Notes under the pieces: generated by a model
Database searches by the model: none
Seen by the model: the letters and a program-made list of their open reading frames with translations, nothing else
Told to the model about the DNA's origin: nothing
DNA from: an uncultured Phycisphaerales bacterium
GTDB lineage: Bacteria > Planctomycetota > Phycisphaerae > Tepidisphaerales > Tepidisphaeraceae
Length of the DNA stretch: 64,000 nucleotides
Direction: 5' to 3'
Assembly (NCBI GenBank): GCA_963758525.1
Contig: CAVWVQ010000003.1
Coordinates: forward strand, 3,648,001-3,712,000
Shown here: piece after piece, positions 33,392 through 49,479 of the stretch
Numbering within the stretch: the first letter of the stretch is position 1
How the letters are laid out: each line of letters starts with the position of its first letter
Position numbers and translations under genes: made by a program

Positions 33392-35536
33392 TCAAGCCGC
33401 GCGCTTCCTCCTGATGGATGCACCCCATGCCAATGCGGCGACGGCCAGTGCCATCGCAGCGGTAAGAGGGTCGATCGCGCCGGCGCCCGTTGAGCTGCTG
33501 CCGCCGCTGGAACTGGGTAAGTCGGCGTTATGCCCGGCCGATTGCGGCGCGGCGAATGGTGCGCTCACGCCCGGCAGGCTGGCATCCGGGGAGTCTGTAG
33601 CGGAATCAGGGAGCATTGCGAGTTGCTTGGGCTCAACCGCCGCAGGCCCAAGGGCGTCGATGGCCTGGTTTCGCATCTTTTCAAGCTGATCGCGCAGGAC
33701 CGCTTCGCTCTGCCGATCGTGATCGAGCCGCAGCGCGTTGCGACGCTCGATGTGCCACCGCTGAAACTCCGCGTCGTTTTCCAGGACGATGAACGAGGTG
33801 TACTCGGTGGCGATGGAGTACCCTTCGCCAAGTTTGACGATCTTATCCACCACCGCGGAGCGCGAGCCGCTCGCGTCAGCCTCTTTCAGCAGGCCCTGTA
33901 CCTGGTGCCATGCCCACATCCGCTCGATCTCGGGGTTCGTCGTGTCCTGCTTGGGGAAGTCGAGCGAGACAGCGGTTTTCATCGGTTCATCGCCGATCTT
34001 GCCGGCGAGGGTGATGCAGCAAGCTCCGCCGATTTTGTATCGCCCATAGACGCGAACGGGAGCGCCGTAGTAAAGGTTGGGCAATTCGGCGGGAACCACG
34101 TCGTACACCTGAATGCCGCCGAAATCGACCTTAAGATCGCTCGCCACCGGTCGCAGAAGTTTGCGGCGGAAAGCTTCAGCGGCGCGGGCGAAGTTGTCGC
34201 CGTGGCTGAGAAACGCAGCCAGCCCTCCCGACTCGTCGGCAACGTTCTGCAGCAGCGGCTTGTTGACATCGTTGCCAACGCCGATGCTGAAAACGCGGCT
34301 GTTCGCCGGCCGCCCCTTGATCAACTGCAACAACGTTTGCGCATCGCCGGCGTCGGTCAGCCCGTCGCTAAGGATCACGACGTTGAGGGTGCGCTTGGGG
34401 TCATCGTACTTGTATGCGGTGTTCAGTGCCGGATTCAGCACCGTCCCGCCGCGCGCTTCCTGCGAGGCAAGAAACGCCTGCGCCGCCGCCTTTTGCTCGG
34501 CGGACGCCGGCATGATCTGATTGAACAACGGGTGAGCCGTGACATTGAAGGTCATGACTTCGAAACGGTCATCCTTGCCCAGGTTGTTGATAAACGCGTC
34601 CAGCGAGTTGCGCGACAGGTCGAGCTTCCCGTCGTCGCTCATGCTGCCGGAAATGTCGAGGATGAACACGTAGTCCATTCCCGCCTCCCGCTGCTTCAGT
34701 TCTTCGCCTGCCGTCATCGTCATGCAGAAATAACCGTCTTCTGCGCCCTGCCGGCTGGCGATCAGATCGATGCCCGTGTGCGGGCGCGACAAGTGGTACG
34801 CCAGCACCACGTCACGATTCAAATCTCCCTCACTGGTCTCCAGGCTGGCCTGGAAGTATTTGGCATTGTGCTGTGCGATGGCAAAATCCTTGGGATGGCT
34901 CGGGCTCTCCATCGCGACGACCGGCACTTCGCTTTTCACATCCACCGTCATGGAGAATTTGCCTCTCGCGTGGCTGTCGATCCGTCCTCGCGTGGTCGTG
35001 GCCAGCGGGTAGACCAGCGTGGCCCAATCATGGTCCACGTCCAATTCCTGGTAGTAGACGACCTGCACCTTCTGCTGGGCCCGCGCGGCGATGGGGAAGA
35101 CGCGCATCTCGAAGGTCTTGTAGTCCACTTGTTCCAGCAGCCCCGGGTCACGCTTCTGCTGCTTGTAGCTGTTATAGATTTGGCGGGCCTTGTCCTTTTC
35201 CAGTACCTCTCCGACCATCTCCTTCCCGTCGATCCACATGGAGAAGCTCGCGACCGAGGCATTGTTGGGAACCGGGAAGGTATACAGCGCCTCGACCTGC
35301 TTGTTTTCCAGGTTCTGGAACACCTGCGTCACTTGCGTGACTGCAATTCCGTTGTTGATCGTAACCTTCACGGAGTGCTCCTTGATCTCCAGTTGCCCGC
35401 CAAGCCCGCCATCGGCGATGAGCATCCCGGCAGCGCGAGCGCGTGCCGCCGTGAGGGAGATCATCAGCAGCAGCGCGATCACGCCCGGCGGCGCCGAGCG
35501 GCGGTTGAACGACGTTGACCATATAGATCGAACCAT
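33392..35536 (-). CDS. Exported VIT + vWA domain protein with GlyGly-CTERM-like sorting tail
   Basis: Signal peptide; VIT (EALYTFPVP...GLLEQ); MIDAS DISGS and LSDG; C-terminal SSSGGSSSTGAGAIDP-TM-RRKR. Confidence 0.88.
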   Translation of the reverse strand: MVRSIWSTSFNRRSAPPGVIALLLMISLTAARARAAGMLIADGGLGGQLEIKEHSVKVTINNGIAVTQVTQVFQNLENKQVEALYTFPVPNNASVASFSMWIDGKEMVGEVLEKDKARQIYNSYKQQKRDPGLLEQVDYKTFEMRVFPIAARAQQKVQVVYYQELDVDHDWATLVYPLATTTRGRIDSHARGKFSMTVDVKSEVPVVAMESPSHPKDFAIAQHNAKYFQASLETSEGDLNRDVVLAYHLSRPHTGIDLIASRQGAEDGYFCMTMTAGEELKQREAGMDYVFILDISGSMSDDGKLDLSRNSLDAFINNLGKDDRFEVMTFNVTAHPLFNQIMPASAEQKAAAQAFLASQEARGGTVLNPALNTAYKYDDPKRTLNVVILSDGLTDAGDAQTLLQLIKGRPANSRVFSIGVGNDVNKPLLQNVADESGGLAAFLSHGDNFARAAEAFRRKLLRPVASDLKVDFGGIQVYDVVPAELPNLYYGAPVRVYGRYKIGGACCITLAGKIGDEPMKTAVSLDFPKQDTTNPEIERMWAWHQVQGLLKEADASGSRSAVVDKIVKLGEGYSIATEYTSFIVLENDAEFQRWHIERRNALRLDHDRQSEAVLRDQLEKMRNQAIDALGPAAVEPKQLAMLPDSATDSPDASLPGVSAPFAAPQSAGHNADLPSSSGGSSSTGAGAIDPLTAAMALAVAALAWGASIRRKRAA

Positions 35537-35662
35537 GATTCAGCTCCTTTCCAAGAGCATTAGAAAGGGGACGTGTTTTCGTGCCGCCCTGGCAGCCGAC
35601 GGGTGATCGAGTCGCGCCGTCCCTTTAGACGCGTTCGAGTTGGCTGAGGCCCTGGTGCTCAA

Positions 35663-35678
35663 AGCGAAGGCGGTGCCG
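35663..35678 (-). promoter_or_regulatory. Sigma-54 -24/-12 promoter for the VIT-vWA operon
   Basis: Minus strand cGGCACcgcctTCGCt with GG-N10-GC spacing. Confidence 0.6.
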
Positions 35679-35762
35679 TCGCGGGTTCCGCGTTTTCGCG
35701 GCCCTGAGTGGCGTTCTGTGCCTCGCGTCCTTACAACTCAATACATTCTTTGCGCAATGGCA

Positions 35763-35777
35763 GTACATTGGATGTAC
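35763..35777. promoter_or_regulatory. Candidate enhancer (UAS) palindrome
   Basis: gtacat-tgg-atgtac, about 90 nt upstream of the sigma54 promoter and just before the activator start. Confidence 0.5.
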
Positions 35778-35786
35778 ACTGCCGGC

Positions 35787-37343
35787 ATGCTCTTTACGTC
35801 GGCCCAAAGACGCGTCGCTGAGGCATTTCGCACGCTCGTTTACTGCAACCCCTTCCTTCCGGAGCGAGCGACCTGCGAGCAGGACATCCTGGGCGCCGAT
35901 GCTGATGTGCTCGACTCACCCTGGAACGTCATTCACGACGTTGCCGGCGGGCGGCGAAATCTTGCGCGGTTGAGGGATCGGGCCGAGGACCTGGCCTCCA
36001 GCGCCCGCGAGCGTGTCGTTGCCGGCGTCACGCCGGTCCCCGGGGAGACCGAACTGTACGAAAATCTGGTCGTCTACGTGCTCTACTACCGCTGCTACGA
36101 TCAGCTCAATCTGCCGATCCAGCAGGCCGGGAATGCCGCGGCGGCTAAAGGCAAAGTCGCCCAAGGCGCGGTGAAGCGAGCTCCCCAGCGCGTTGCCGGG
36201 TACGGTGAGCTGGTCCGCGGCGCCCGCCACTTCCTGCAGCCGCTGGAAACCTCGCTGACGGTGGCGCACGATCCGGCGCACCTGATGGCGCTATTTTTCC
36301 AGATCCGGCGTGCGTTTCACCACATTTTCAGCTTCCTCGCCGGTCGCACGATGGCGGCGGCGCGGCTTCGGGCGGCGGTCTGGGAGTCGATTTTCACTCA
36401 CGACATGGCCCGATATCGTCGCACCCTCTACTGCCGCATGGCGGATTTCACCACGCTGATTACCGGTCCGTCCGGAACCGGCAAGGAACTGGTCGCCCGC
36501 GCAATTGCGCTCTCGCGCTACATCCCCTTTGATGAGAAGCGCCAATGCTTCGTTGAAGACTTCGCCGGATCGTTCGCCGCACTGAGTCTCTCTGCGCTCT
36601 CGCCAACATTGATCGAGTCGGAGTTGTTTGGCCATCGCCGCGGGGCATTCACCGGCGCGCTCGACGACCGCGCTGGATGGCTGGAAACCTGCCCGGCGCA
36701 CGGCACCGTCTTCCTCGACGAGATCGGTGAGCTGGACGGGCCGATACAGGTGAAGCTGCTGCGGGTGCTCCAGGACCGCGTCTTTCAGCGCCTCGGCGAT
36801 ACCGCTTCCCGCACCTTCCGCGGCAAGATCGTGGCTGCCACCCACCGCGATCTCGCCGCCGAGATGGCCGCCGGACGTTTTCGCACCGACTTTTATTATC
36901 GCCTCTGTTCCGACCTGGTCCGCACGCCATCATTGCGGGAACAGTTACTCGAACGCCCAGAGGAGCTGCGCGACCTGGTTCTCTTCATCGCGCGTCGCGA
37001 GGCCGCCGGGGAGGCCGATACCGTTGCCGACGAAGTCGTTGCCTGGATCGACAAGTCCCTCGGCCGCGATTATCCCTGGCCCGGTAATTTTCGGGAGTTG
37101 GAACAGTGCGTTCGGAACGTTCTGGTGAGAAGCAGGTATACGCCCCCCGCGATGTCGTCGACCGACGCATTGGATGATTTGTTCCGAAACATCAGAACTG
37201 CGAGCCTCACGGCCGAAGAGTTGCTTCGTGCATACTGCGCGCTGGTCTACGCCCAGACCGGCAGCTATGAAGAGACTGCGCGGCGAGTGAAGCTGGACCG
37301 CCGGACTGTTAAGAGCAAAGTTCAGCCGTCGTCCGCAAGGTAG
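35787..37343 (+). CDS. Sigma-54-dependent transcriptional activator (bEBP)
   Basis: GPSGTGKE, ESELFGH, GAFTGA, FLDEIG, WPGNFREL, C-terminal HTH. Confidence 0.93.
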   Translation: MLFTSAQRRVAEAFRTLVYCNPFLPERATCEQDILGADADVLDSPWNVIHDVAGGRRNLARLRDRAEDLASSARERVVAGVTPVPGETELYENLVVYVLYYRCYDQLNLPIQQAGNAAAAKGKVAQGAVKRAPQRVAGYGELVRGARHFLQPLETSLTVAHDPAHLMALFFQIRRAFHHIFSFLAGRTMAAARLRAAVWESIFTHDMARYRRTLYCRMADFTTLITGPSGTGKELVARAIALSRYIPFDEKRQCFVEDFAGSFAALSLSALSPTLIESELFGHRRGAFTGALDDRAGWLETCPAHGTVFLDEIGELDGPIQVKLLRVLQDRVFQRLGDTASRTFRGKIVAATHRDLAAEMAAGRFRTDFYYRLCSDLVRTPSLREQLLERPEELRDLVLFIARREAAGEADTVADEVVAWIDKSLGRDYPWPGNFRELEQCVRNVLVRSRYTPPAMSSTDALDDLFRNIRTASLTAEELLRAYCALVYAQTGSYEETARRVKLDRRTVKSKVQPSSAR

Positions 37344-37558
37344 CGAAGGACGCATCGTTCCCCTCGCCCAGCCCGCGGCGAAGCGATCGCCCGCTCTCTC
37401 GACAGCACCCTGGTACCGCGTTTCCCGTCAGACGGCTGTTAAGTACGTCTGGTCCACCTCATACGCCCAATAGCGGGCATGGAAGTACGGTGCTCACGGT
37501 CCAGCGCCAATGCCGAGCACCGGAACGAAACGGCTGCGATTGTTGAAAAATTCGCCGC

Positions 37559-37801
37559 TCAGTCGGGCTTGCGGTCAGTTTCCACCGGTTCATGGTCAGG
37601 GACGGCAGCCAGGAACCGGTCAAAGTCGGCGCGGCGGCCGCTGGCCGCTTCGTGACGCAGATATTCGAGTGTGCGAAGTGCGGCCATCTTCTCGGCCGCG
37701 GCGCTGGCCAAAAATTGGTCCACGGAGTATCCCTCTTCGGCGGCCAGCGCTTGGATGCTCCGCTGAAGCGACTCGGGAAGTTCGACAGTCAGTTTGCTCA
37801 C
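37559..37801 (-). CDS. Antitoxin, RHH/HicB-like
   Basis: LTVELPESL...AAAEK...VPD; GTGA-coupled to the PIN gene. Confidence 0.82.
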   Translation of the reverse strand: MSKLTVELPESLQRSIQALAAEEGYSVDQFLASAAAEKMAALRTLEYLRHEAASGRRADFDRFLAAVPDHEPVETDRKPD

Positions 37802-38217
37802 GGTCTGCTACCTTCTGCGATCATTTTCAGGAAATGCCGCGGCGTAACGGCCTGAACGCCCAACTGCTCACAGCCACGGAAATCCCGGATGTTGGGGGTC
37901 ACGATATATGGACAGTTCGCGGCAAACGCTAACTCCAGAACCATATCGTCGTTCGGATCAGGAAGAAACGGCCGCCAAAAAAAGAAAATATCCTGCAGCC
38001 ATGCCTGGGCGGCAAGGTATCGCAGGAAACCCAGTGCATTATCGGAACTCTGCCCCGGAGGCAGGTGCTCGGGCCGGGTCAGTACGTCCTGCCATTCCGC
38101 GTAGAGTCCGATCGACAGACAGATTTCAAAACGAGGCGATGGAATCTCACTGACGAGCGCGAAGCTTGCTCCGCGCCGCGAGCGAACCGCGGCAACAAGA
38201 ACCGACGTATCTTTCAT
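37798..38217 (-). CDS. PIN-family toxin (PIN_3-like)
   Basis: DTSVLVAA, EW, LPDPNDDMVLELA, IVTPNIRDF; ATGA-coupled to the pnkp stop. Confidence 0.85.
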   Translation of the reverse strand: MKDTSVLVAAVRSRRGASFALVSEIPSPRFEICLSIGLYAEWQDVLTRPEHLPPGQSSDNALGFLRYLAAQAWLQDIFFFWRPFLPDPNDDMVLELAFAANCPYIVTPNIRDFRGCEQLGVQAVTPRHFLKMIAEGSRP

Positions 38218-40790
38218 AACCTCGGATCCACCGGCTCGCTCTCCAGCGCCAAAACTGCAAAGACACATTCATGCACCCGCCGCAGCGGCTCACGGCGGGC
38301 GAATCGCTCAAGTCCTTCAATGCCCAGGGCGAACTCCCGCAGCGCGAGCGATCGCTTGGCCGCCAGCCCGCGCGAACGAAGGCGCTCCAGATTACCTGGC
38401 GCGTCGTACTCCGGGCCGTAGATGATGCGCAGATATTCCAGCCCGCGGCACTTGACCGCCGGCTGCACCAGACCTTTCTTTCCGCGCACGACAAATTCCA
38501 GCGGCTTGACGACCATTCCCTCGCCGCCGGCGGCGGTGAGCTGCTCCCACCAGGCGATTCCAGCCGCGACCTCGGCCGGGTCGGTCACGTTGACGACGCG
38601 ATGTGCGGTCGTCATCAACGGGCCTGGCAATGCATCGTTGGTCAGTCTTGCCAGCATTTGCATGTGCCAATGGTGGTCGCGATCAACGTGAACTTTTCCC
38701 TCGCTGGCAAGAAGATGGAACGGCGCCAGGCGCAGATCGGAAACGCCGTTCACCGGCCAGCAATATCGGCGGTATGACTCGACGTATTGATGCACCCGCG
38801 TGAGCCGGCTGCGCTGCTTTTCCAGCATCGCATCGATCTGGGCTGCCGATGCAGTGCCCGCGAAATGGTCAGCTGTCTGCTGCAAGAGATCGATCGATTC
38901 GGCGACGGCGGCGCTCGATGCCGATCCGACCGCCGCGTATTGGTTCTTCAGCAGTTCCTGCGCCTTGGCCGACCAGGGCATCAACTCGCAGTCGAGGCAG
39001 AACCAGTCGGTCGAAAGTTCGTGCCACAGGTTCGCCCGCGTCAGCCCGTCGCGAACAGTGTTGAGCAACTCGGCCTCGACAGAGCGATCCTCGAAGAACC
39101 GTCGGCCGGTACGCGTGTAAATGATTCCAGCCGTCGCTTCCCGAACTGCAAAGCGACTGCGGGCCGTCGCCTCATCCCGGCAGACGATGACCACCGCCCG
39201 CGACCCCATGTGCTTCTCCTGGCACATGACGGTTTCCGCGCCGGCGGTTCGGAAATAATCGAACGCCTCCTGCGGATGCTCGAGCAAACCCGGCAGTTGC
39301 GTCGTGCCGGTCGGCGACATTGTGGGCGGCAGATAGATCAGCCATTTCGGATCGACCGCGAACCGGCTCATCACTTCCAGCGCGGCCGTGGCGTTTTCCT
39401 CGCGGACGGTGACGCTGTGATGCAGCCGCGTTGTGATGAGGCGCTTGCCGGTCACGTCCGCCAGGTCCAGCACATCGTCATGCTGCTGTTGCGCGCTGAG
39501 TTCCGGCTGCACGTGCGGCGCGAGAAACGGCCGAGCCGGTTCTGCGTACGTCCTGCGGGCAGGCACTGAGATGATCTCTTTCTCAGGCCAGCGCAGCGCG
39601 GAGAGCTTTCCGCCAAAGACGCAGCCGGTGTCGATATTGATCGTGCGGTTCAGCCAGTCGGCTTCGAGAACGGGCGTGTGACCGTACACAACATGTGACG
39701 GTCCGCGATATTCCGCGGCCCAGTGGTAACGAATCGGCAGGCCGAATTCGTCGGTTTCACCCGTCGTCTCTCCGTAGAGCGCAAATTCGCGAACGCGCCG
39801 CGAAGCCCGGCCGATGTATCGCTGCTTCATTCCGGCGTGAGAGACGACAAGCCGACCGCCGTCGAGCACGTAGTGACCGACCAGCGAATCAATGAAGTTT
39901 GCGACTTCATCGCAAAATTGCGGAGACTGCCCTTCAAGTTGTTCCAGCGTTTCTGCCAGGCCATGCGTGATCTGAACGTTTTTGCCCCGCAGTTTTCGCA
40001 GCAGCTTCGCGTCATGATTGCCGGGCAGGCACAGGGCCGTGCCGGCTCGCACCATCGACATCACGAGCTTGAAGACCTCGACGACTTTGGGGCCGCGGTC
40101 GTTCAGGTCGCCGAGAAAAATTGCCTTGCGCCCGCTCGGTGGAGTCACCGCGATATTTTCGCTGGTCGTTTCGATCTGGTAGCCAAGGGATGTGAGCAAT
40201 TCGGCCAGCTCGTCATAGCAGCCGTGTACGTCGCCGATGATGTCAAATGGGCCGGTGTCAGATTTGCGATCATTCCACAGCGGTTGCCGTTCGATGCTGA
40301 CGCTCTCCACTTCCTCTGGCGTCTGGAGGATATGCACGTAGCGGAATCCCTCCCGTTCCAGTCCGCGCAAGCTTCGCCGAAGCTGCATCAGTTGATTGCG
40401 AATCACATGCGGCCCGAACGCGCGATCCGCCCGGCCCCGATTGCGCTCCTGACAAACGTCCTCCGGCATCTTCAGCACGATCGCCACCGGCAGAACGTCA
40501 TGCTCGCGCGCGAGCTCGACCAGCGGTTTGCGTGCTTCGCTCTGCACATTGGTCGCATCAATCACCGTGAGAAGTCCGCGGCCGAGGCGCTTTCCCGCGA
40601 CAAACTTCAGCACGTCAAACGCGTCCGCGGTCGCTTCCTGGCTGTTCTCGTCATCGCTGACCAGTCCGCGACAGAAGTCTGACGAAATCACCTCCGTTGG
40701 CTTGAAGTGCTTCCGCGCGAATGTGGACTTGCCGCAACCGGATGGGCCGATGAGGACGACAAGAGATAGTTCGGGGACGGTTAGTTTCAT
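38214..40790 (-). CDS. pnkp: Polynucleotide kinase-phosphatase-ligase Pnkp (RNA repair)
   Basis: P-loop GPSGCGKST, DATN; GDVHG, GDLNDRG, GNHD phosphatase motifs; ligase EKHMGSR; ends VDPRL. Confidence 0.96.
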   Translation of the reverse strand: MKLTVPELSLVVLIGPSGCGKSTFARKHFKPTEVISSDFCRGLVSDDENSQEATADAFDVLKFVAGKRLGRGLLTVIDATNVQSEARKPLVELAREHDVLPVAIVLKMPEDVCQERNRGRADRAFGPHVIRNQLMQLRRSLRGLEREGFRYVHILQTPEEVESVSIERQPLWNDRKSDTGPFDIIGDVHGCYDELAELLTSLGYQIETTSENIAVTPPSGRKAIFLGDLNDRGPKVVEVFKLVMSMVRAGTALCLPGNHDAKLLRKLRGKNVQITHGLAETLEQLEGQSPQFCDEVANFIDSLVGHYVLDGGRLVVSHAGMKQRYIGRASRRVREFALYGETTGETDEFGLPIRYHWAAEYRGPSHVVYGHTPVLEADWLNRTINIDTGCVFGGKLSALRWPEKEIISVPARRTYAEPARPFLAPHVQPELSAQQQHDDVLDLADVTGKRLITTRLHHSVTVREENATAALEVMSRFAVDPKWLIYLPPTMSPTGTTQLPGLLEHPQEAFDYFRTAGAETVMCQEKHMGSRAVVIVCRDEATARSRFAVREATAGIIYTRTGRRFFEDRSVEAELLNTVRDGLTRANLWHELSTDWFCLDCELMPWSAKAQELLKNQYAAVGSASSAAVAESIDLLQQTADHFAGTASAAQIDAMLEKQRSRLTRVHQYVESYRRYCWPVNGVSDLRLAPFHLLASEGKVHVDRDHHWHMQMLARLTNDALPGPLMTTAHRVVNVTDPAEVAAGIAWWEQLTAAGGEGMVVKPLEFVVRGKKGLVQPAVKCRGLEYLRIIYGPEYDAPGNLERLRSRGLAAKRSLALREFALGIEGLERFARREPLRRVHECVFAVLALESEPVDPRL

Positions 40791-40847
40791 AGAGGCCCGT
40801 TTGTCTTGATACGCGGCGATTCCGCGTGGTGGTCAAGCGACAGTGTT

Positions 40848-40915
40848 GTACTGCGGGATTCATTCCGCCGTGATTTCTCGCGCCCGACACCATGGCGGGA
40901 TGAATCCCGCCCTAC
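40848..40915. repeat. REP doublet, family A
   Basis: gcgggattcattccgccg ... ggcgggatgaatcccgccctac. Confidence 0.85.
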
Positions 40916-41000
40916 ACGAGACGTGCATGCGACTGCTGGCGACTCGACCCCTCGATTCAACCGGCATCGACCCGCTCTTGGCGATCAACATCCTTCCTCC

Positions 41001-41765
41001 TTACGTTTGCGACAGCCTGATTTGAAGCAACAGCTCGTGCAGATCCGCCTTGCCCGAGGGGTTATCCGGCAACGCGCTGCCCTCGTGAGCGTGCTGCAAC
41101 TTGTCGCGCAGACGATGGTATTCGAGTTGGTGAAACTCGATCTCCCCGTCCGCGAGGGTCGTTTGCTCGGCGCTGGCGATCTTGCGCGAGATCAGATCAC
41201 GGACATGGGCCAGCCTCTGCTCGTCGTTGAGCGTGCCGAGGTTCGCTTCGACCTGGCCGGTTTGCATCAGATGAATCCCGGTGAGGAGCACGCGGTAAAC
41301 GTAGAGCAACGGCTTGACCCGCCGAGGTCTCTCCTTCTCAAAAAGCTTCCATTGCGTCTCGGCAAAGCCGAAATAGTGGTGCGCGTGGTGACGCGTGATG
41401 CACCTTGTGGCAATCTGCTCGAGAAGATCGTGCTGCGGCGTTGTCATCACGATGAGCGGCGAATAAAGCTGTTCGAGCACGTATCCGTTCTTTTTCAGAA
41501 GCAGTGAGAAGAATTTGTGCGCGTCGTGAGTGACCAGATCGAGTTCGACGCCATCGCGATCATCTGCCACTTCAATCGTCTCCGGCCCGGTTTGCAGGCC
41601 GGCGACTCGATCGAGCGGCAGGATATGGACGCCGCGCAAATCGTAATCGCTGTCCGGCGACGCAAAGCCGTACAGGTGCGCTCCGCTGATCGTGACGAAC
41701 AGAAGCGGATAAGGCTGCGATTCGGCGACCTTTTTGAGAACCGGCAACATCACTGGCGGTGACAC
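41001..41765 (-). CDS. Pol-beta superfamily nucleotidyltransferase, RlaP/YcgL-like, copy 2 (true start may be 41750-41753)
   Basis: SGAHLYGFASPDSDYDLRG, KKNGYVLEQLYSP, KPLLYVYR. Confidence 0.88.
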   Translation of the reverse strand: MSPPVMLPVLKKVAESQPYPLLFVTISGAHLYGFASPDSDYDLRGVHILPLDRVAGLQTGPETIEVADDRDGVELDLVTHDAHKFFSLLLKKNGYVLEQLYSPLIVMTTPQHDLLEQIATRCITRHHAHHYFGFAETQWKLFEKERPRRVKPLLYVYRVLLTGIHLMQTGQVEANLGTLNDEQRLAHVRDLISRKIASAEQTTLADGEIEFHQLEYHRLRDKLQHAHEGSALPDNPSGKADLHELLLQIRLSQT

Positions 41766-41792
41766 TCCTGTCGAAGCTACGGGTGAATCGAT

Positions 41793-41863
41793 GTAGGGCG
41801 GGATTCATTCCGCCGTGATTTCGCGAGAGATCGGAACAGACGGCGGGATGAATCCCGCCCTAC
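41793..41863. repeat. REP doublet, family A
   Basis: gtagggcgggattcattccgccg ... cggcgggatgaatcccgccctac. Confidence 0.9.
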
Positions 41864-41885
41864 GGGGAGAACGATATCGCCGAGC

Positions 41886-42824
41886 TCAGTCATCTTGGAC
41901 CATGCTCCGGCGCACCTCGAGCAGCCAATCATTGGCTGCCACGTAGTCGGGCCGCTCGGGAAGAGTCGTTTTTGCGTAGGCATTTTCAAAGTCCTGCTGG
42001 AGGGAAATCCGCCAGGCATCGGCGGCTTCGAACGGCATCTCGCCGCGTCGCACCGCCAGCAGCTTGTCCCGCGCTCCCTGCGGAACCGCAACGGGGACGC
42101 GATGTTCTTCGAGCACTGTAATGCCCGCCATCAGCAGCCGGAGCAAATGCATCACGTGTTTCCATTTGATCGCGCCTTTGTTGCGCAGGTCGGCCTGGAG
42201 CTTCTTGAACTGGCTCATCACATAGCCGTTGTACGTCTGATAGATGAGTTTGGAGAGCAGTCGCTCTCGAATCCCCAGGAGTTCCTGAGCCAGCGGCGTC
42301 GCGTGCTCGACCATCGGCGTGTAGAGGCACTCCAGCACATTGGGATTGGCCTTGAGCGCCAGCATGAGAAACTTCTGCGCTTCCCAATAGACTTCCTCGG
42401 TCTGCGGATTTTCCAGTTGCTCCGGCACGCCATAAAGCGACCAGTGGAGCGACGCCGGAGGAAGATACACGCCACGGCGGTCGACATCGCTCGCTTCGTT
42501 GGACAAGCCGTAGGCCTGTGAGCCGACGACGCACCGGTAGATCACGTGGCGGTACAAATCGTACTCGGCAAGCGGATCGAGCATTGGTCCGTCGCCGGCC
42601 GCGTCCTGAAACTGAGAGAGAATCGCCAGTTCGCGTCGATGCAGGCTTGCCAGTGAACCATCGTTGAACCGCACCCGGTAACTGTTCCAGTAGTCTGAAG
42701 GCGCTTCCTGCACGACGCCGACCGCGCCGCGCGGATGCAGGGGCCGACCGTCTTCTCCGCGAATGTCCGCAAGCGCAACGACCTTGGTGCCGACCGAGAG
42801 AATGAAATGCGCCTGGTGGTTCAA
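41886..42824 (-). CDS. Pol-beta superfamily nucleotidyltransferase, RlaP-like, copy 1, with SH3-like N-terminal domain
   Basis: GSQAYGL...SDVDRRG, KANPNVLECL, WKHVMHLLRLL; N-terminus GTKVV...GAVGVV...YRVRF. Confidence 0.88.
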   Translation of the reverse strand: MNHQAHFILSVGTKVVALADIRGEDGRPLHPRGAVGVVQEAPSDYWNSYRVRFNDGSLASLHRRELAILSQFQDAAGDGPMLDPLAEYDLYRHVIYRCVVGSQAYGLSNEASDVDRRGVYLPPASLHWSLYGVPEQLENPQTEEVYWEAQKFLMLALKANPNVLECLYTPMVEHATPLAQELLGIRERLLSKLIYQTYNGYVMSQFKKLQADLRNKGAIKWKHVMHLLRLLMAGITVLEEHRVPVAVPQGARDKLLAVRRGEMPFEAADAWRISLQQDFENAYAKTTLPERPDYVAANDWLLEVRRSMVQDD

Positions 42825-42843
42825 TTGTCGCTCAAGCTGAAAG

Positions 42844-44247
42844 TCATGGCAGCTCAAAAACCGCCATCTGCGTGGGCGGTCCAACTTCCGGATCCTCCGG
42901 GCCGACGGGCAGGAAGCGAGCCGCGTAGGAAAACCGGGCCGCGACCGCGCCCGCCCATTCCTGGAACTGTCGGCGCGTCCATTCAAAGCGATGGTCGCGA
43001 TGACGAAACGTGCCGGCCGCAAGCGTCTCGAATCGCACGTTGTATTCCACGTTGGGCGTGGTGACGATCACCGTCTTCGGCCGGGCAAACTCAAAGAGCA
43101 CTCGCTCAAACGCCACCAGCCTCGGTTCGTCGAGATGTTCGATGACTTCCACGACGGCGGCTGCGTCAAACCCGCTCAGACGCGCATCGCGATAGATGAG
43201 CGAGCCGTGCAGCAACTCGATCCGGGCCCGCTGCCGCTCCGGCATGCGTTCCAGATGCAGCCGTTCGGCGGCAATTTCCAGAGCGCGATGCGAGACATCC
43301 ATTCCAACGACACGGTCAAACTGCTTGTCTTCCAGAAGCCGGCGCAGGAGATTGCCGTAACTGCATCCCAGATCGAGCACGCGCTGCGCCCCGCATGATT
43401 TCAGGCCCGCCAGCACGGCATTCTGCCGCTGCTCGTTGAGGCTGAGCTTCTCCTCCACTTTCTGCTCTTCGGTCGCGCGCAATTCTTCGGCTTCATCCGC
43501 TTGCGCAGGATCCGCGTCAATGAGCCGGGCCAGCGCCTGATCCGCGAGGTGCCGACGGTGCTTGAGATAGCGGCGGACGATCTGTTCTTTCTCCGGATGC
43601 GCCGCCAGCCACGGCTCGCCGTGCCGCAGCAGTTTTTCGACCTCTTCCTCGCCGATCCAGTAGTGCTTGTCGTTGTCGAGCACTGGAATCAGCACGTACA
43701 GATGCGTGAGCAGATCGTGCAGCGTGATCGTCTGCGAAAGCTCGACCGTGAAGTACGGTCCTTCGCCCCATTCGGGAAACCGCTGATCGAGCGGATGATG
43801 CGTCGCGGAGACACGATACCCCAACGGCTCGAAAAGTTTGTGCAGCAACATCTCACCGCCCCGGCAGGGGAGCACACTCAGCCGCGCCACCAGCGGAATC
43901 GGCCTCTCGATCAGGTCCGGCCGTTCGCGGCTTGTTCCCGAGAGCGCCGAGCCAAAAACCTGTGCGATGGCGACCGACAGCAGCGAACTGGCGACATAGG
44001 GCCGATCGTTCACGTACTGCTCCAGCGAAAACCCTTCGCCCGCCGGTCCGCGGCGATTGCGCACCAGGCCGATCGGATCGATCTCCAGCAACAAAGCGGC
44101 GGTGCAGCGTTCTGCCGAAGCCTGTGGATAGAACACGTGTGCGGTTCCGAACGCCAATTCAAACGCCTGCGGCCGCGCAGGGTTTTTGTGCAGCAGATAC
44201 CCGAGGTCGGTGGCGGGGGAGTGGGTGGTTGTGAGCGTGAGGAGCAT
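42844..44247 (-). CDS. hen1: 3'-terminal RNA ribose 2'-O-methyltransferase Hen1
   Basis: MLLTLTTTHSPATDLGYLLHKNP, YVNDRPY, VLDLGC, EVIEH, FRHRDHRFEW. Confidence 0.96.
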   Translation of the reverse strand: MLLTLTTTHSPATDLGYLLHKNPARPQAFELAFGTAHVFYPQASAERCTAALLLEIDPIGLVRNRRGPAGEGFSLEQYVNDRPYVASSLLSVAIAQVFGSALSGTSRERPDLIERPIPLVARLSVLPCRGGEMLLHKLFEPLGYRVSATHHPLDQRFPEWGEGPYFTVELSQTITLHDLLTHLYVLIPVLDNDKHYWIGEEEVEKLLRHGEPWLAAHPEKEQIVRRYLKHRRHLADQALARLIDADPAQADEAEELRATEEQKVEEKLSLNEQRQNAVLAGLKSCGAQRVLDLGCSYGNLLRRLLEDKQFDRVVGMDVSHRALEIAAERLHLERMPERQRARIELLHGSLIYRDARLSGFDAAAVVEVIEHLDEPRLVAFERVLFEFARPKTVIVTTPNVEYNVRFETLAAGTFRHRDHRFEWTRRQFQEWAGAVAARFSYAARFLPVGPEDPEVGPPTQMAVFELP

Positions 44248-44338
44248 GGCGTGCAAAATCGTCGCTGTCGCCGATCTAATTGCAACGCGTGCTGTGAGAC
44301 GAAGGCGCGGTCGGACGTCAACGCGCCGGCTAGTAGCA

Positions 44339-44632
44339 TCAGCGTCCGCGTACACTGGTGGATTCCGCAAGTGCCCCAGGTATGGGTTTGCCGGTCACAC
44401 GGCTATACAGCACCTCGGGATCTACGTCTGCGCCGTTGGGCCACACCACTGTGCCCAATTCGTTGTTCACGCTTACCTTTGCAAAATACTCCTTGTCTTC
44501 CAGCGGCGCGAAAACACCACCCTGGCCAACGACCCACGATTCAAAATCCACCACCCCCTTGATCCCGTCAGCGAACGTCAGCTCCAACTGATAATCACGG
44601 AGGTACTGAACGGATGTCACATCGGGATGCAT
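44339..44632 (-). CDS. DUF2442 family protein (putative antitoxin)
   Basis: YQLELTFADG, GVFAPL, TVVWPNGADVDPEVLY. Confidence 0.85.
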   Translation of the reverse strand: MHPDVTSVQYLRDYQLELTFADGIKGVVDFESWVVGQGGVFAPLEDKEYFAKVSVNNELGTVVWPNGADVDPEVLYSRVTGKPIPGALAESTSVRGR

Positions 44633-44646
44633 AGCGGTCTCCATGC

Positions 44647-44906
44647 TCAGCGTAAGGGCTCTATGCTCTGCAGCGGTTGATGCTCCATGGCGGATCGGAA
44701 GTTTGTCAGTAGCTCGTCTTGGTGCAGCGCTGCCCATTCGATCACCATCCCAGCGCACGCGGTGGAAGGTAGCCGGATATCAGCATTGGGGGATTGATCA
44801 GTATTTTTGCTTTATCCGCTCCGTATCGAGCATGGAAGTGCGCCGGTTCATGGTCGTTGTAATAAATGGCAACGATGATCCCAAAAAATCGAGAGATCTC
44901 CGGCAT
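44647..44906 (-). CDS. DUF4160 family protein (putative toxin); two homopolymer frameshifts, absent from the ORF track
   Basis: MPEISRFFGIIVAIYYNDHEPAHFHARY ... LPPRAL ... VIEWAALHQDELL ... IEPLR, restored by +1 C near 44790 and +1 G near 44750. Confidence 0.82.
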
Positions 44907-44969
44907 CAACCCACGCTAACGATTGTAGTATGGCAATTCAACGTCGGACGTCGAAGATATCGAAGATCC

Positions 44970-45090
44970 CAAGGCAATTGCATGTGACAGTTTTGTGGTG
45001 CAGGCTTCCAGCCTGCTTCCCAAGCAGCAGGCTGGAAGCCTGCACCACAATGGGAAATCGTCCTTCCGGCAGTCACATGCAATTGCCCTG
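44970..45090. mobile_element. MITE (121 bp) with 19-bp TIRs, 9-bp target-site duplication and an internal REP doublet
   Basis: caaggcaattgcatgtgac / gtcacatgcaattgccctg (18 of 19 match), flanked by cgaagatcc on both sides. Confidence 0.8.
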
Positions 45091-45161
45091 CGAAGATCCC
45101 CACCAGGGCCGATCGATCGCGTACGGCATTCAGAATTGCAACGCCCCCGAAGTTTGGCAAA

Positions 45162-46535
45162 ATGGCGAGCGTGAGTGACGAAAAACAACCTGAGGTGTGG
45201 GACGCAATCATCATCGGCGGCGGCCCGACTGGAGCGATCGCCGGCCTGGAGCTCGCGCGGCGCGGACGCCGCGCCCTCATCTTGGAAAAGGCGGAATTCC
45301 CGCGATTTCACGTCGGCGAATCGCTGCTGCCGGCGACGCTCGATCTGCTTAAAGAGCTGGGGCTGGAGGCAGAACTGCGGAAGCTGCCGCATGTGAAGAA
45401 GTTCGGTGCGGATTTTGCGATGGGGGGCAAGGGACTGCCGACGGAGATCGATTTTGCGCACGGGTATTGCCGGTCATTCGAGACGTTTAACATCGAGCGG
45501 TCGCTCTTTGACGCAATGCTTCTGCGCGAGGCGGAGAAGCGAGGCGCCCAAGTCCGGCAAGGGACGGCTGTCAGACGGATCGTGTCACTTGCCGATGGCG
45601 ACGTGTGCGTGGAGACGGATGCGGGGGAGGTTCGCGGGCGGTATTTGCTCGACGCGAGCGGGCAGGGCTCCGTGGTCGGCCGGCATCTGGGAACACGTCG
45701 CCCGGCTGAAGAGTCGTACCTCCACAAGGTCGCATACTTCAACCATTTCGAGAATGTATCGCGTGCCGACGGCATCAAGGGAGGCAATCCGCTCATCGCG
45801 ATGATGGACGAGGGTTGGTTCTGGCTCATTCCGATCACCGAACGTCGCACCAGCATCGGCATGGTGATCGATGCCGACACGGCCCGGCGCATCTCTCGCG
45901 AGGAAGGCGTCGCGCCGGATCGCATGCTCGCGTGGGGGCTGGATCGCTGCCCCGCGATGCTCAAGCGATTGCGTGATGCAATTCGGCCGCAGACGAACAA
46001 TGTTGCCGCGGATTTCAGCTATCGCTGCCGGCCCTACGCGGGGGAGGGTTATTTCCTGGTGGGCGACGCGGCGGCGTTTATGGACCCGATCTTTTCAACC
46101 GGAATCTTTGTCGGCACCCAGGGAGCGATGGCGACGGCCCGCCTGGTGGACGACATCCTTGCCGGTCGCATCAGCGCTTCGCGGGCGCGCAAACAGTATT
46201 GCCGCCAGTTCGAGCAGTGCACCGACACGCTCTTCAAGCTCATCGGCCAGTATTACGATCACTCGTTCCGCGAATTGTTCCTGCAGGGGTCCGGTCCGCT
46301 GGCGGTGCATCGCGCGGTGATCGGGGTCCTGGCGGGGAATGTTTTTCCGCGTCCGCCATTGAAGCTGCGATGGCGATTGTGGGTGTTCGATCAGTTCGTG
46401 AAGATCAATCGCAGCCGCCGGTTGGTGTCACCGCGACGAAGGTTTTCGCTGCTCAAGCAGACCGTGCCGTCCGCGGGTGCTGCGCCAATGATCGCAGTGG
46501 GCACTGGAACCCCGGGCGATCTCCCGCCGGTCTAG
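45162..46535 (+). CDS. Flavin-dependent halogenase-like oxidoreductase
   Basis: IIIGGGPTG, FPRFHVGESLLP, KKFGA, WFWLIP, GDAAAFMDPIFSTG. Confidence 0.82.
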   Translation: MASVSDEKQPEVWDAIIIGGGPTGAIAGLELARRGRRALILEKAEFPRFHVGESLLPATLDLLKELGLEAELRKLPHVKKFGADFAMGGKGLPTEIDFAHGYCRSFETFNIERSLFDAMLLREAEKRGAQVRQGTAVRRIVSLADGDVCVETDAGEVRGRYLLDASGQGSVVGRHLGTRRPAEESYLHKVAYFNHFENVSRADGIKGGNPLIAMMDEGWFWLIPITERRTSIGMVIDADTARRISREEGVAPDRMLAWGLDRCPAMLKRLRDAIRPQTNNVAADFSYRCRPYAGEGYFLVGDAAAFMDPIFSTGIFVGTQGAMATARLVDDILAGRISASRARKQYCRQFEQCTDTLFKLIGQYYDHSFRELFLQGSGPLAVHRAVIGVLAGNVFPRPPLKLRWRLWVFDQFVKINRSRRLVSPRRRFSLLKQTVPSAGAAPMIAVGTGTPGDLPPV

Positions 46536-46682
46536 AGCGAAGCGCAGCGGAGCGTTCGAGAGCGCTCCCGAGGCGCTCCTGCGGCTTAGCCTGGCGCATC
46601 CTGATCTTCTCCCCATTCCCCTTGCAAACGATTTCACGGTCTTCTAAGCTGCAATGTTCCTAAGGAAAGGGTTATCAAGATC

Positions 46683-46967
46683 TTGGATGCAGTGCGGAAT
46701 CAATCTCTCGACGAAATTAAGATCGAATTGAAACGGCTTCTGGTGGAAAATCTCTCGCTGGAAGACGTAAAGGCTGAAGATATTTCCGACGATGCAAACC
46801 TCTTTGGCGAAGACGGGATCGGGCTCGATTCGCTCGACGGGGTTGAGGTGGTCGTGCTGCTCCATCGCCAGTACGGGCTGGACGTGAAGGCAATGCAGAA
46901 GGGGCGCGACGTGTTCCGCTCGATCAATACCCTGGCGCCCTACGTGCTGGCCAACGCGACCAAGTAA
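46683..46967 (+). CDS. Acyl carrier protein
   Basis: LFGEDGIGLDSLD phosphopantetheine motif. Confidence 0.92.
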   Translation: MDAVRNQSLDEIKIELKRLLVENLSLEDVKAEDISDDANLFGEDGIGLDSLDGVEVVVLLHRQYGLDVKAMQKGRDVFRSINTLAPYVLANATK

Positions 46968-46985
46968 CAATTCGCGCGATTCATC

Positions 46986-48290
46986 ATGACACGCTCACCG
47001 ATCTGGATTGCGGGCGTCGGGGCAGTATGCGGAGCTGGTGACGATATCCCCTCGATTCTCAGCGCGTTCTCGACCGGCCGACGCAGGCCCGTGAACACGC
47101 TTCCCTTTAAAAGCTCCGTGGTGTGCCCGACATTCCAGGTTTCGGCGGATTTGCCGGTGCTTCCTGAACGATACAACAGCAGTCGCAGCCTCCGGATGAC
47201 GATCCGGGCTGTGCGGGAAGCGCTGGAAAACGCGGGGATCCGGCGATTGGGCGCTAACAGTCCGTTGCACAACCCCGCTCCGAATCTGAGCTACTCCGAA
47301 GGCTCGGATCAGGCGCCGGGAAATCCGAGCGTTCGGAGTACCTCAGACTCGGCGTGGAGGGGCTCCGAGTCGGGTTCTAACGTCCGCGTCGGCGTCTGCA
47401 TCGGAACGACGGTGGCGTGTCAGTTGAACAGCGTTTCGTTTTACGGCGCCTATCGCGGCGGGCAGGAACCGCCGCTCGACGCGGTCTGGAACTATCTGCA
47501 TTCGAATCTGGCGCAGGCGGTCGCGAGGTTGCTAAAGCTCAGCGGCCCGCGGATGACGGTCGTCAACGCATGCTCATCGGGCACCGACGCGATCGGCGTT
47601 GCCGCGAGCTGGATTCGCGCCGGTCTGTGTGACATCGCCATTGCCGGCGGCGCGGATGAATTGCACCCGGTGCCGATGTCGGGGTTCTGGTCGCTGGGGG
47701 TGATGAGCACCGAGCCGTGCCTGCCATTCGATCGCAACCGCAGCGGCTTGAATCTGGGAGAAGGCGCCGGGATCGTCGTGCTGGAGTCCGATGCGCACGC
47801 CAAGGCGCGCGATCGTCGCAATCAGTTTGAGGTTGCGGGTTTCGGCTCCGCTTGCGACGGACATCACCTGACCGCGCCGCATCCCGAAGGACGCGGGCTC
47901 GACGCCGCGATTCGCGCCGCCCTCCAACAGGCGGGCATTGCGCCCAATCAGATCGCGTTCGTCAATGCGCACGGCACCGCGACGCACGACAATGACCGTG
48001 CCGAAGGGAAAGTGCTGGCACGTCTCTTCGGCTCTGATGTGATGCTTCTCTCCACCAAAGGATACACCGGCCACGCCCTGGGGGCGGCGGGGGCGCTGGA
48101 AGCGGTGTTCACGCTGCTGGGCCTGCGGGAAAAATGGATTCCGCCCAGCGCGGGATTCGAGCAGCGCGACGACGATATTGGCGTTGCCCCTGCCGCGCGT
48201 CGCAGGTCGATTGACGGCAACTACGCGCTTTCCACGTCGCTCGCATTTGGCGGCAACAACGCGGCGCTGGTCATCAGGAGGCGCGCTTGA
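46986..48290 (+). CDS. Beta-ketoacyl-ACP synthase (FabF/B-like) with a 41-aa in-frame insertion
   Basis: NACSSG, HGTAT, KGYTGH catalytic C/H/H; SLAFGGNN. Confidence 0.92.
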   Translation: MTRSPIWIAGVGAVCGAGDDIPSILSAFSTGRRRPVNTLPFKSSVVCPTFQVSADLPVLPERYNSSRSLRMTIRAVREALENAGIRRLGANSPLHNPAPNLSYSEGSDQAPGNPSVRSTSDSAWRGSESGSNVRVGVCIGTTVACQLNSVSFYGAYRGGQEPPLDAVWNYLHSNLAQAVARLLKLSGPRMTVVNACSSGTDAIGVAASWIRAGLCDIAIAGGADELHPVPMSGFWSLGVMSTEPCLPFDRNRSGLNLGEGAGIVVLESDAHAKARDRRNQFEVAGFGSACDGHHLTAPHPEGRGLDAAIRAALQQAGIAPNQIAFVNAHGTATHDNDRAEGKVLARLFGSDVMLLSTKGYTGHALGAAGALEAVFTLLGLREKWIPPSAGFEQRDDDIGVAPAARRRSIDGNYALSTSLAFGGNNAALVIRRRA

Positions 48291-49150
48291 TTCAGCCAAT
48301 GGGAATCCTCGGCATCGGCGCGATCACCCCCTTCGGCAGAGATCTCGCGCAGGTTGCCCGGCACGTGCAGGAATCGGGCCGCAATCCGCCCAGCGGGCGG
48401 CGCGTCAACGATGAACTTTTGGTGGACCCGGCCATCAGCAAGCGAATGCGACGAGCCGATCGCTTTTCCCGGATGGCTGCCGTCGCCGCGATTGACGCAT
48501 GGAAACAGTCGAGCGGCGCCTGCGAGGATGTGCCCAGGGAACGCATCGGGCTGATCGTGACCTCCGGCTTCGGTCCGCATTGCCGCGGATTCCGATTCCT
48601 CGATGGAATGCTCGATTGCGGCGACAGTGCCGCCTCCCCCACGGATTTCTCTCACTCCGTTCATGGCGCCGCCGCCGCGTACATCACCGAACTGCTGGAA
48701 CTGCGCGGACCGTCCCTGAGCACGACGGACTTTGAAGTCGGATTCGAGGAAGCCGTCCTGCTCGCGCAATGCTGGCTCAATGACGGCACGTGCCAGCGCG
48801 TCCTGGTGGGGGCCGTCGAGGAACTGGGCGACGTGCTGCTGCATTGCGTGGCGCGCATGATCGCGCCGGAACAGTCAATGATTCTGGGCGAGGGCGCTCT
48901 CTTTTTCATGCTCGGGCCGGAGGCCGCCGGCGCGTTTGCGAGTCTCGACGCAGTTGCCGGGCCCCGGGCCGACGAGCTACGAATTATCGATGAATCTGAA
49001 AATCACTTCTGTCGCTCGGCGACGGATTCTGCCTTCCGGTTGCTCGCGACGGTGCTTTTGCCGCAGGTTGAAAATGCCCGGGTGGTTGGCGCATCGTGCG
49101 GCTTACGGGAAACTTCATTGGGCGTCACCCGTCGAAGCCCGATGATCTGA
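48287..49150 (+). CDS. Ketosynthase-like chain-length factor (N-terminal KS domain only)
   Basis: MRRADRFSRMA, SPTDFSHSVH; no catalytic Cys. Confidence 0.82.
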   Translation: MIQPMGILGIGAITPFGRDLAQVARHVQESGRNPPSGRRVNDELLVDPAISKRMRRADRFSRMAAVAAIDAWKQSSGACEDVPRERIGLIVTSGFGPHCRGFRFLDGMLDCGDSAASPTDFSHSVHGAAAAYITELLELRGPSLSTTDFEVGFEEAVLLAQCWLNDGTCQRVLVGAVEELGDVLLHCVARMIAPEQSMILGEGALFFMLGPEAAGAFASLDAVAGPRADELRIIDESENHFCRSATDSAFRLLATVLLPQVENARVVGASCGLRETSLGVTRRSPMI

Positions 49151-49170
49151 TTGCGGAGGAAGAATTTCAG

Positions 49171-49479
49171 ATGCTCCAAGCCAGCGATATTGAAGATGTT
49201 CAGAAGCAACTCTGCGAGGAAATTCGCGTGTTGATGTCGTTGAAGCCCGGCGCGGTTCTTCCCGACACCAGCCTGGCGGGCTTGGGCATCGATTCGCTGC
49301 GATTCGTTTCGCTGCTGATCGTCATCGAGCAGAAGTTCGGCGTGAGCCTGATGAAGGTGGGACTGAAAAAAGAGGACATGCAGTCTGTTCGCACGCTCTC
49401 CTCGGCGATTTGCGCGGGCGCAGCGCTTGAGGCTTTCGCTTCCCTATTTCCGCTCGCGCCGCTACCTGAGCGGCGTTGA
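49171..49479 (+). CDS. Acyl/peptidyl carrier protein (true stop probably ~49430, masked by a 1-nt deletion)
   Basis: LGIDSL motif, IEQKFGV; ggagg SD. Confidence 0.85.
   Translation: MLQASDIEDVQKQLCEEIRVLMSLKPGAVLPDTSLAGLGIDSLRFVSLLIVIEQKFGVSLMKVGLKKEDMQSVRTLSSAICAGAALEAFASLFPLAPLPERR

Follow-up and report, generated by a model that had tools for sequence, protein, structure and literature searches.

The subject of this report is an RNA-repair operon on the minus strand of a 64,000-nucleotide (nt) stretch of DNA from an uncultured Phycisphaerales bacterium (contig CAVWVQ010000003.1, positions 3,648,001 to 3,712,000; hereafter the window), in which two divergent RlaP nucleotidyltransferase (NTase) genes are placed between hen1 and pnkp. 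Gene calls and Pfam searches bore out the eight genes of the preliminary description in the order given there, namely DUF4160, DUF2442, hen1, RlaP-1, RlaP-2, pnkp, PIN, and a small antitoxin-like gene. All eight are real, co-oriented and separated by short gaps or 4-nt overlaps, the reported ATGA (PIN/pnkp, 38217/38214) and GTGA (antitoxin/PIN, 37801/37798) junctions being present in the sequence, and the GC content of the locus is the same as that of its surroundings. The four repair genes, with the extra domain of RlaP-1, are as follows (aa, amino acids):

42844..44247, minus strand: hen1, 467 aa; ligase-activating N-terminal domain and RNA 2'-O-methyltransferase (TIGR04074, PF12623)
41886..42824, minus strand: RlaP-1, 312 aa from a TTG, start uncertain; SH3/Tudor-like barrel and RlaP nucleotidyltransferase (PF10127)
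42600..42809, minus strand: N-terminal barrel of RlaP-1, approximately residues 6-75, SH3-like (Tudor/KOW/PWWP-type) by profile and structure matches
41001..41765, minus strand: RlaP-2, 250-254 aa, starting at a GTG (41765 or 41753); one RlaP domain, in which SGAH replaces SGSR (PF10127)
38214..40790, minus strand: pnkp, 858 aa; 5'-kinase, 2',3'-phosphatase and ligase (TIGR04075)

The identities first given to Hen1 and Pnkp were upheld, with scores of 726 bits against TIGR04074 (cut-off 340) and 1427.8 bits against TIGR04075 (cut-off 750), respectively. PF12623 (Hen1_L) covers residues 1-242 of Hen1, which has a methyltransferase match besides and the motifs DLGC at 292 and EVIEHL at 367, while Pnkp contains the AAA_33, metallophosphoesterase and PNKP_ligase domains together with a P-loop at 15, DVHG at 187, GDLNDRG at 227, GNHD at 257 and QEKHMGSR at 524. 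Each gene occurs in one copy in the 6.47 Mb genome, and both share one co-oriented cluster. By curated cut-offs, motifs and clustering, the locus is thus a standard predicted Pnkp/Hen1 RNA-repair operon. In the characterised system, as outlined in PMC4411300, Pnkp assembles with Hen1 into a heterotetramer that performs the healing, methylation and Hen1-activated ligation of cut RNA; as far as that outline goes, the likeness extends to the full three-domain Pnkp, the two-domain Hen1, their motifs and their union in one operon. The difference lies in the two RlaP genes between hen1 and pnkp, the pair being found inside the hen1-pnkp locus at 8/29 hen1 loci in a sample of the phylum.

Both NTases were confirmed as members of RlaP (PF10127, Pfam cut-off 23) by profile search, at 146.7 bits for RlaP-1 and 173.2 bits for RlaP-2, and the profile is matched by all 71 RlaP-1 members. 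They share 26% identity, and the DxD motif is invariant in both subfamilies (71/71 and 59/59), in agreement with the earlier view of two strongly divergent enzymes that keep this motif. The nearest relatives of RlaP-1 are Tepidisphaeraceae and Phycisphaerae records. At 72 of 80 RlaP-1 loci, which span Planctomycetota, Acidobacteriota, Cyanobacteriota and others, RlaP-2 is found near RlaP-1, the distance being at most 100 nt at 49 and at most 500 nt at 63. Among 60 relatives, eight genomes hold two RlaP matches, adjacent in seven. Across a 300-genome sample of the phylum, tandem RlaP pairs are present in 15/29 Hen1-positive as against 16/271 Hen1-negative genomes; these counts are our reading of the match table, and the Fisher p of 1e-9 is overstated because kin are not independent. 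The pair stands between hen1 and pnkp repeatedly, across phyla; hen1 or pnkp is present at 26/80 RlaP-1 loci, and in the window RlaP adjoins pnkp. RlaP-1 and RlaP-2 are a real unit with one shared task, as the genetic evidence of adjacency, co-occurrence and fusion attests, and this unit is an optional module of the hen1-pnkp operon.

The fusions came to light in a search for longer relatives of RlaP-2, which yielded 100 proteins. Forty-eight are full RlaP-1 and RlaP-2 single chains, 37 with the barrel and 11 without, a tally that leaves out five partial or weak cases. In a further 17 of the 100, two RlaP domains are joined in the other order; six of these were checked, and five start with a CESGSRAWGFAS motif like that of PfRlaP from Pseudomonas and one with the RlaP-2 motif. 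A tree of the RlaP-2 part (a quick IQ-TREE run of 115 rows, the careful search being unfinished) recovered fused clades of 19 (SH-aLRT 97) and 5 (99) members and needs nine changes of state, at least three of them forced by strong branches; inheritance of this kind speaks against sequencing artefacts. In the phylum sample, G208 and G076 likewise have both RlaP matches in one open frame. The linker varies in length among the fusions, and an AlphaFold2 model of one of them (P0176, modelled with 47 other fusions) reached a predicted local distance difference test score (pLDDT) of 92.4 with a disordered linker and a predicted template modelling score (pTM) of 0.55. No confident packing between the halves is predicted by this model, which is no evidence against their binding either.

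Other RlaP architectures were also met. A two-domain family of about 610 aa (P0203-P0216, P0218; several from Verrucomicrobiota) joins a PfRlaP-like domain to an insertion-bearing RlaP-1-like domain, and two further unassigned domains of about 300-350 aa form C-terminal fusions with RlaP-2, one in four proteins and the other in five. Deletion remnants (P0272, P0319, P0330, P0352, P0293; L100:4402-4611) show the RlaP-1 barrel joined to the tail of RlaP-2 or Pnkp, or standing between hen1 and pnkp as a stub of 69 aa. The RlaP module seems to decay often.

Each subfamily has its own fixed set of putative active-site residues. G101-S102, D113, D115 and E144 are invariant in 71/71 RlaP-1 members, and G24-A25-H26, D36, D38 and D72 in 59/59 RlaP-2 members (numbering from 41753). 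At the slot of the third carboxylate, RlaP-1 has Q, E or D in 54, 15 and 2 of the 71 members, with the invariant E144 one residue further on, in a register taken from the sequence alignment. The phosphate-binding motif, which is G[GS] in Pol-beta NTases, is GS throughout the RlaP-1 members and GA throughout the RlaP-2 members. We read these patterns as two probably active, specialised sites; it is possible that one partner is partly degenerate. The start of RlaP-1 calls for a separate remark: the ATG overlapping the hen1 stop opens a frame of eight codons only (42824-42847), and RlaP-1 is in another frame from the TTG at 42824, which may be the true start unless there is another single-base break at 42824-42847.

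An AlphaFold2 model of RlaP-1 (pLDDT 91.5) comprises the N-terminal barrel followed by the NTase and a helical domain. The barrel gave a profile match to the Tudor domain of the lamin-B receptor (2L8D, E 3.4e-5), VIA-align Z scores of 7-8.5 against SH3-like folds (Tudor, KOW, PWWP, SH3), and root-mean-square deviations (rmsd) of 1.2 over 54 residues with 3FC3 and 1.6 over 54 with NusG (1M1G); Pfam gave weak Tudor matches only, and an ESM Atlas search with the barrel returned no usable match. In the best 150 of its 656 relatives, 55 run on into RlaP-1, 62 stop within 35 residues, and the tails of the other 33 resemble frameshift or deletion remnants (one of them a spurious repeat protein); no second conserved architecture was seen among these 150, and by sequence the barrel seems to be confined to the RlaP-1 subfamily. 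In structure, the whole model is best matched by Hailong HalB, solved with oligodeoxyadenylate (rmsd 3.8 over 169 residues at Z 10.5), and the NTase part also matches aminoglycoside NTases; both matches reflect the shared NTase fold. Neither sequence nor fold searches turned up a solved RlaP structure.

The closest biochemical knowledge of RlaP comes from Pseudomonas (a 2025 preprint, PMC12776372), where the enzyme adds one or two nucleoside monophosphates (NMP) to the 3'-OH of RNA using any nucleoside triphosphate, favours the break end when the tRNA is nicked, does not act on DNA or protein, and brings back part of the aminoacylation of tRNA short by one nucleotide. Its product is accepted by 5'-phosphate ligases, and NMP addition has so far been shown only for PfRlaP and PaRlaP (PMC12776372). 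Both share with the present pair the PF10127 match, the Pol-beta NTase with its helical domain, the DxD motif and a position beside an RNA ligase gene. They differ in being single genes in rtcB-rtcA operons, whereas here two subfamilies are paired, are naturally fused elsewhere, and bear an SH3/Tudor-like barrel and an apparently displaced third carboxylate (RlaP-1) or SGAH for SGSR (RlaP-2). The link between RlaP and RNA ligases is already published, Burroughs and Aravind 2016 being the work to which PMC7824862 and PMC6514570 refer in the relevant excerpts. No paper on the pairing of two RlaPs, on its fused forms or on the barrel emerged from a literature search; the work that defined RlaP, Burroughs and Aravind 2016, lay outside that search and may describe the pairing, and Supplementary Fig. 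S2 of PMC12776372, which concerns operons with 5'-phosphate ligases, may include a hen1-RlaP-pnkp operon.

From these comparisons, we consider it probable that the optional two-gene RlaP module serves to refill ribotoxin-lost nucleotides before ligation in a standard Pnkp/Hen1 operon, and that the two toxin-antitoxin (TA) pairs beside it are independent, partly decayed insertions. A nuclease would cut tRNA or rRNA to give a 5'-OH and a 2',3'-cyclic phosphate, the ends that most ribotoxins leave according to the account in PMC4411300. The kinase and phosphatase of Pnkp would heal these ends to a 5'-phosphate and a 3'-OH, as established for the family to which this Pnkp belongs; RlaP-1 and RlaP-2 would then put one or two NMPs on the healed 3'-OH, as shown for the Pseudomonas enzyme; and Hen1 would 2'-O-methylate the end and switch on the Pnkp ligase, which would seal it, again as established for the family. 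Cutting, healing and the final methylation and sealing are likely steps because of the Pnkp/Hen1 family membership, and the refill and the division of labour are what we infer. Most likely, RlaP-1 and RlaP-2 would be loosely coupled enzymes with differing nucleotide or substrate preferences, the barrel of RlaP-1 perhaps helping to bind RNA or a partner. The role first suggested for the NTases is thereby retained in part: nucleotide addition before ligation agrees with the Pseudomonas enzyme (PMC12776372), and, judging from that enzyme, NMP addition to a 3'-OH is more probable than an activation of ends.

The four genes that bracket the repair operon are listed below:

44647..44906, minus strand: DUF4160 (DhiT-like) toxin gene, with a frameshift near 44750; PF13711, 45.7 bits over positions 1-46 of the 65-position profile
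44339..44632, minus strand: DUF2442 (DhiA-like) antitoxin gene, 97 aa; PF10387, 58 bits
37798..38217, minus strand: PIN_3 (VapC-like) toxin gene, 139 aa; PF13470, 51.6 bits, cut-off 27
37559..37801, minus strand: small antitoxin-like partner of PIN, 80 aa; sub-threshold ParD match, E 0.004

The DUF4160/DUF2442 pair, the only copy found in the genome, resembles dhiTA, described in PMC8198452 as a type II TA system of Dickeya dadantii; on that description, the likeness consists of the same domain pair with the toxin first. It differs in that the toxin is frameshifted here, the antitoxin has 97 aa as against a 160-position DhiA model, and both fall under the NCBIfam cut-offs (52 bits against NF048015 DhiT, cut-off 100; 23.2 bits against NF048016 DhiA, cut-off 200). 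Frame 1 of DUF4160 ends after 54 aa, and the remaining domain continues in another frame to 44647, the break being at a G run near 44750. In a rough test, about 6/64 conserved genes of the assembly have frame breaks, so that single frameshifts in this genome call for caution and, for DUF4160, decay and an assembly error are equally possible. The one DNA read run consulted held 0.09 of the words, with the DUF4160 break and the PIN start outside its coverage.

The PIN protein passes the Pfam cut-off and scores 18.4 bits against TIGR00305 (cut-off 29.15); its likeness to PIN_3/VapC-like TA systems also extends to the small partner, which is the same in its relatives. It starts MKDT, its relatives mostly being 142 aa long and starting MRVxFDT, so that it is three residues short in the first strand before the first catalytic Asp; at least five residues precede the DT in 110/120 relatives. 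In the DNA of ten close relatives, the five codons ahead of the Asp are intact; in the window, the end of pnkp takes their place, the PIN ATG being made of the final Leu codon of pnkp and its stop. The ATGA overlap is weak evidence for evolved coupling, since a deletion junction would explain it equally well. The last gene had been called an antitoxin, and its company supports this, its relatives following a PIN relative at 40/44 loci (PIN relatives of up to 89% identity); its family assignment falls short, with the ParD match below threshold.

Linkage of the TA genes to the repair genes was sought from both sides. From the repair side, tblastn with the four TA proteins of the window found none at 89 loci (9 of Hen1-bearing and 80 of RlaP-1 relatives) or at 36 further ones, that is, at 0/125 in total. 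The Pfam scan of neighbouring genes met a PIN gene at 2/35 hen1/pnkp loci (L013, on the opposite strand, and L048), no TA family at 29 phylum loci, and DUF4160/DUF2442 at 0/64 hen1/pnkp loci. For this survey, open reading frames (ORFs) were chosen by a greedy procedure with a lower size limit of 55-60 aa; 110/110 small ORFs were scanned at the 35 hen1/pnkp loci, 70/70 co-oriented small ones at the 29 phylum loci and 91/142 at loci without hen1 or pnkp, in addition to 87/139 large ORFs, some loci being from the same genomes and some ending at contig edges. In 37 Hen1-bearing genomes, the DUF2442 (11 genomes) and PIN_3 (17 genomes) matches are never at the hen1 locus. From the TA side, loci of PIN relatives hold pnkp, hen1 or RlaP in 0/44 cases (35 with at least 500 nt upstream) and loci of DUF2442 relatives hold hen1 in 0/29, DUF4160 being alongside in 22/29. 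One genome, G004, supplies a hen1-pnkp locus without the RlaP pair (L002/L012), one row of the relatives tally and one DUF2442 locus (L181), and no conclusion rests on it. Being unlinked to the repair genes from either side, each TA pair appears self-contained and moving on its own, and both are likely independent, partly decayed insertions, that is, passengers of the operon.

Several observations weigh against the preferred reading of an RlaP refill within a Pnkp/Hen1 operon. A complete RlaP pair is missing from 21/29 hen1 loci of the phylum sample, the pair lacks hen1 and pnkp at 26/45 RlaP-1 loci having at least 5 kb on both sides, and 16/31 pair-bearing genomes have no Hen1 match; in G001, of the same genus, another gene lies between hen1 and pnkp, with the RlaP pair on a different contig. 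Both proteins, moreover, depart from the PfRlaP motifs, RlaP-2 with GA-H for GS-R and RlaP-1 with mostly Q at the third Asp slot, so that the activity of PfRlaP is not simply transferable to them. The absence of Hen1 from so many pair loci and genomes, the motif differences and the HalB match with its oligonucleotide would suit a stress module with a substrate of its own (for instance tRNA 3' ends, another ligase pathway, or an oligonucleotide or protein NMP product) that shares only a regulon with hen1 and pnkp; this is improbable in view of the strong co-occurrence with Hen1, the recurrent placement in hen1-pnkp loci across phyla, the action of the characterised members on RNA 3'-OH alone and not on DNA or protein (PMC12776372), and the origin of the HalB match in a common fold. 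It is also rather unlikely that the two RlaPs exist as an obligate heterodimer, with one site altered and each partner completing or regulating the other. Such an assembly is favoured by fusions that occur in either order and in several lineages, by complementary motif departures fixed in each subfamily, and by the close spacing of the genes at 49/80 loci, whereas the DxD retained in both is as expected of two active enzymes, the fusion linkers vary in length, and PfRlaP works alone (PMC12776372). RlaP-1, furthermore, occurs without RlaP-2 within 8 kb on both sides at 4/80 loci, and on a separate contig in G024.

The TA genes raise objections of their own, for the only DUF4160/DUF2442 pair of the genome sits 91 nt upstream of hen1, one of its nine PIN_3 matches flanks the operon, and the TA genes may be read through with the operon in this strain. 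Together with the co-orientation and the short gaps or overlaps, these facts could point to all eight genes having evolved as a single damage-and-repair unit, its co-expressed toxins PIN and DUF4160 cutting RNA for the repair genes to restore; in Anabaena, late induction under translational stress is common to vapC genes and the hen1-pnkP operon, as stated in PMC8421152. Such a unit, which the preliminary description had proposed as a self-contained module with its own toxins, is very improbable. Conservation is missing from the TA side and the repair side alike, TA genes of unrelated families occur near related loci only sporadically, like other insertions, and both toxin genes look damaged, DUF4160 by its frameshift (sequencing error being possible at the observed rate of breaks) and PIN by the loss of three first-strand residues and of its native start region. 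The missing conservation largely refutes the toxin-coupled module.

For the preferred reading, a refill by the RlaP pair before ligation by Pnkp/Hen1, a bolder version may be put forward tentatively: RlaP-1 and RlaP-2, as two genes or one fused chain, might be a two-part RNA end-rebuilding machine in which each adds a different nucleotide or serves a different step, with the barrel docking on tRNA or the ribosome. The split CC-adding and A-adding tRNA nucleotidyltransferases are likewise two paralogous template-independent NTases with one end-rebuilding job, an analogy only, as they belong to a different NTase class from RlaP. If true, the two-part machine would refill nucleotide-excised RNA with greater accuracy than the single Pseudomonas RlaP, whose NMP addition is random. 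A gap is left by PMC12776372: its enzyme does not discriminate between nucleotides, and in RtcB operons the 3'-OH that it produces is unsuited to the ligase. In a Pnkp/Hen1 operon with RlaP the ends are compatible, which makes such an operon the natural choice for reconstituting refill, methylation and ligation in one system, and the conserved, sometimes fused, diverged RlaP pair suggests a testable way in which the correct nucleotide might be selected.

Besides RlaP, related loci have recurrent accessory genes, a shifting set that fits an operon prone to gene gain and loss. Those found beside the pair or beside hen1/pnkp are:

L038, L058, L083, L091: ADP-ribosylglycohydrolase
L030, L048, L080, L090, L099: HEAT-repeat protein
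L030: Thg1
L053, L105: PTH2
L085: R2K ATP-grasp

Two proteins without a Pfam match also recur. One of about 435 aa adjoins the RlaP pair (L015:5894-7198, L030:6594-7931, L071:10063-11361, L077:6671-7975), between hen1 and RlaP-1 in three of these loci, and in protein P0138 RlaP-2 carries a related stretch as a fusion; the other, of about 255 aa, follows hen1 at L024:3962-4726 and is an N-terminal fusion to RlaP-2 in six proteins (P0180-P0183, P0185, P0189).

Scans for promoters and terminators stayed at chance levels (1 vs 1.8; 6 vs 7.3), and Rfam had no match at E 0.1 over 36000-46500. The gaps of the operon contain the following palindromes:

41793..41863, no strand assigned: REP-like palindrome in the RlaP-1/RlaP-2 gap, with 24-nt arms that are 96% complementary; DNA hairpin z -9.2
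40847..40916, no strand assigned: second copy of the same palindromic repeat, in the RlaP-2/pnkp gap

Their core pattern has 293 matches in the genome, and a role as a structured RNA or regulatory element was rejected because they are genome-wide repeats. At 44967-45093 in the window, a palindrome with 36 matches is nested inside a rarer one with four, and of the genome's 23 Y1 transposase genes, the 16 that were checked have none of the three patterns nearby.

On one side of the operon, a divergent plus-strand cluster (45162-50761) begins with a halogenase-like gene dependent on flavin adenine dinucleotide (PF04820), and the genes after it resemble acyl carrier proteins and ketosynthases, by eye only. 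On the other, at 33392-37343, a VIT-vWA protein gene (minus strand) faces a sigma-54 activator gene (plus strand) that converges on the operon end. Long tRNA arrays are co-induced with RNA-repair genes in Anabaena, according to the relevant part of PMC8421152; the present genome has arrays of 15 tRNA genes (G000:C3:3764011-3766477) and of five (3600074-3600529), about 71 and 85 kb, respectively, from the repair operon.

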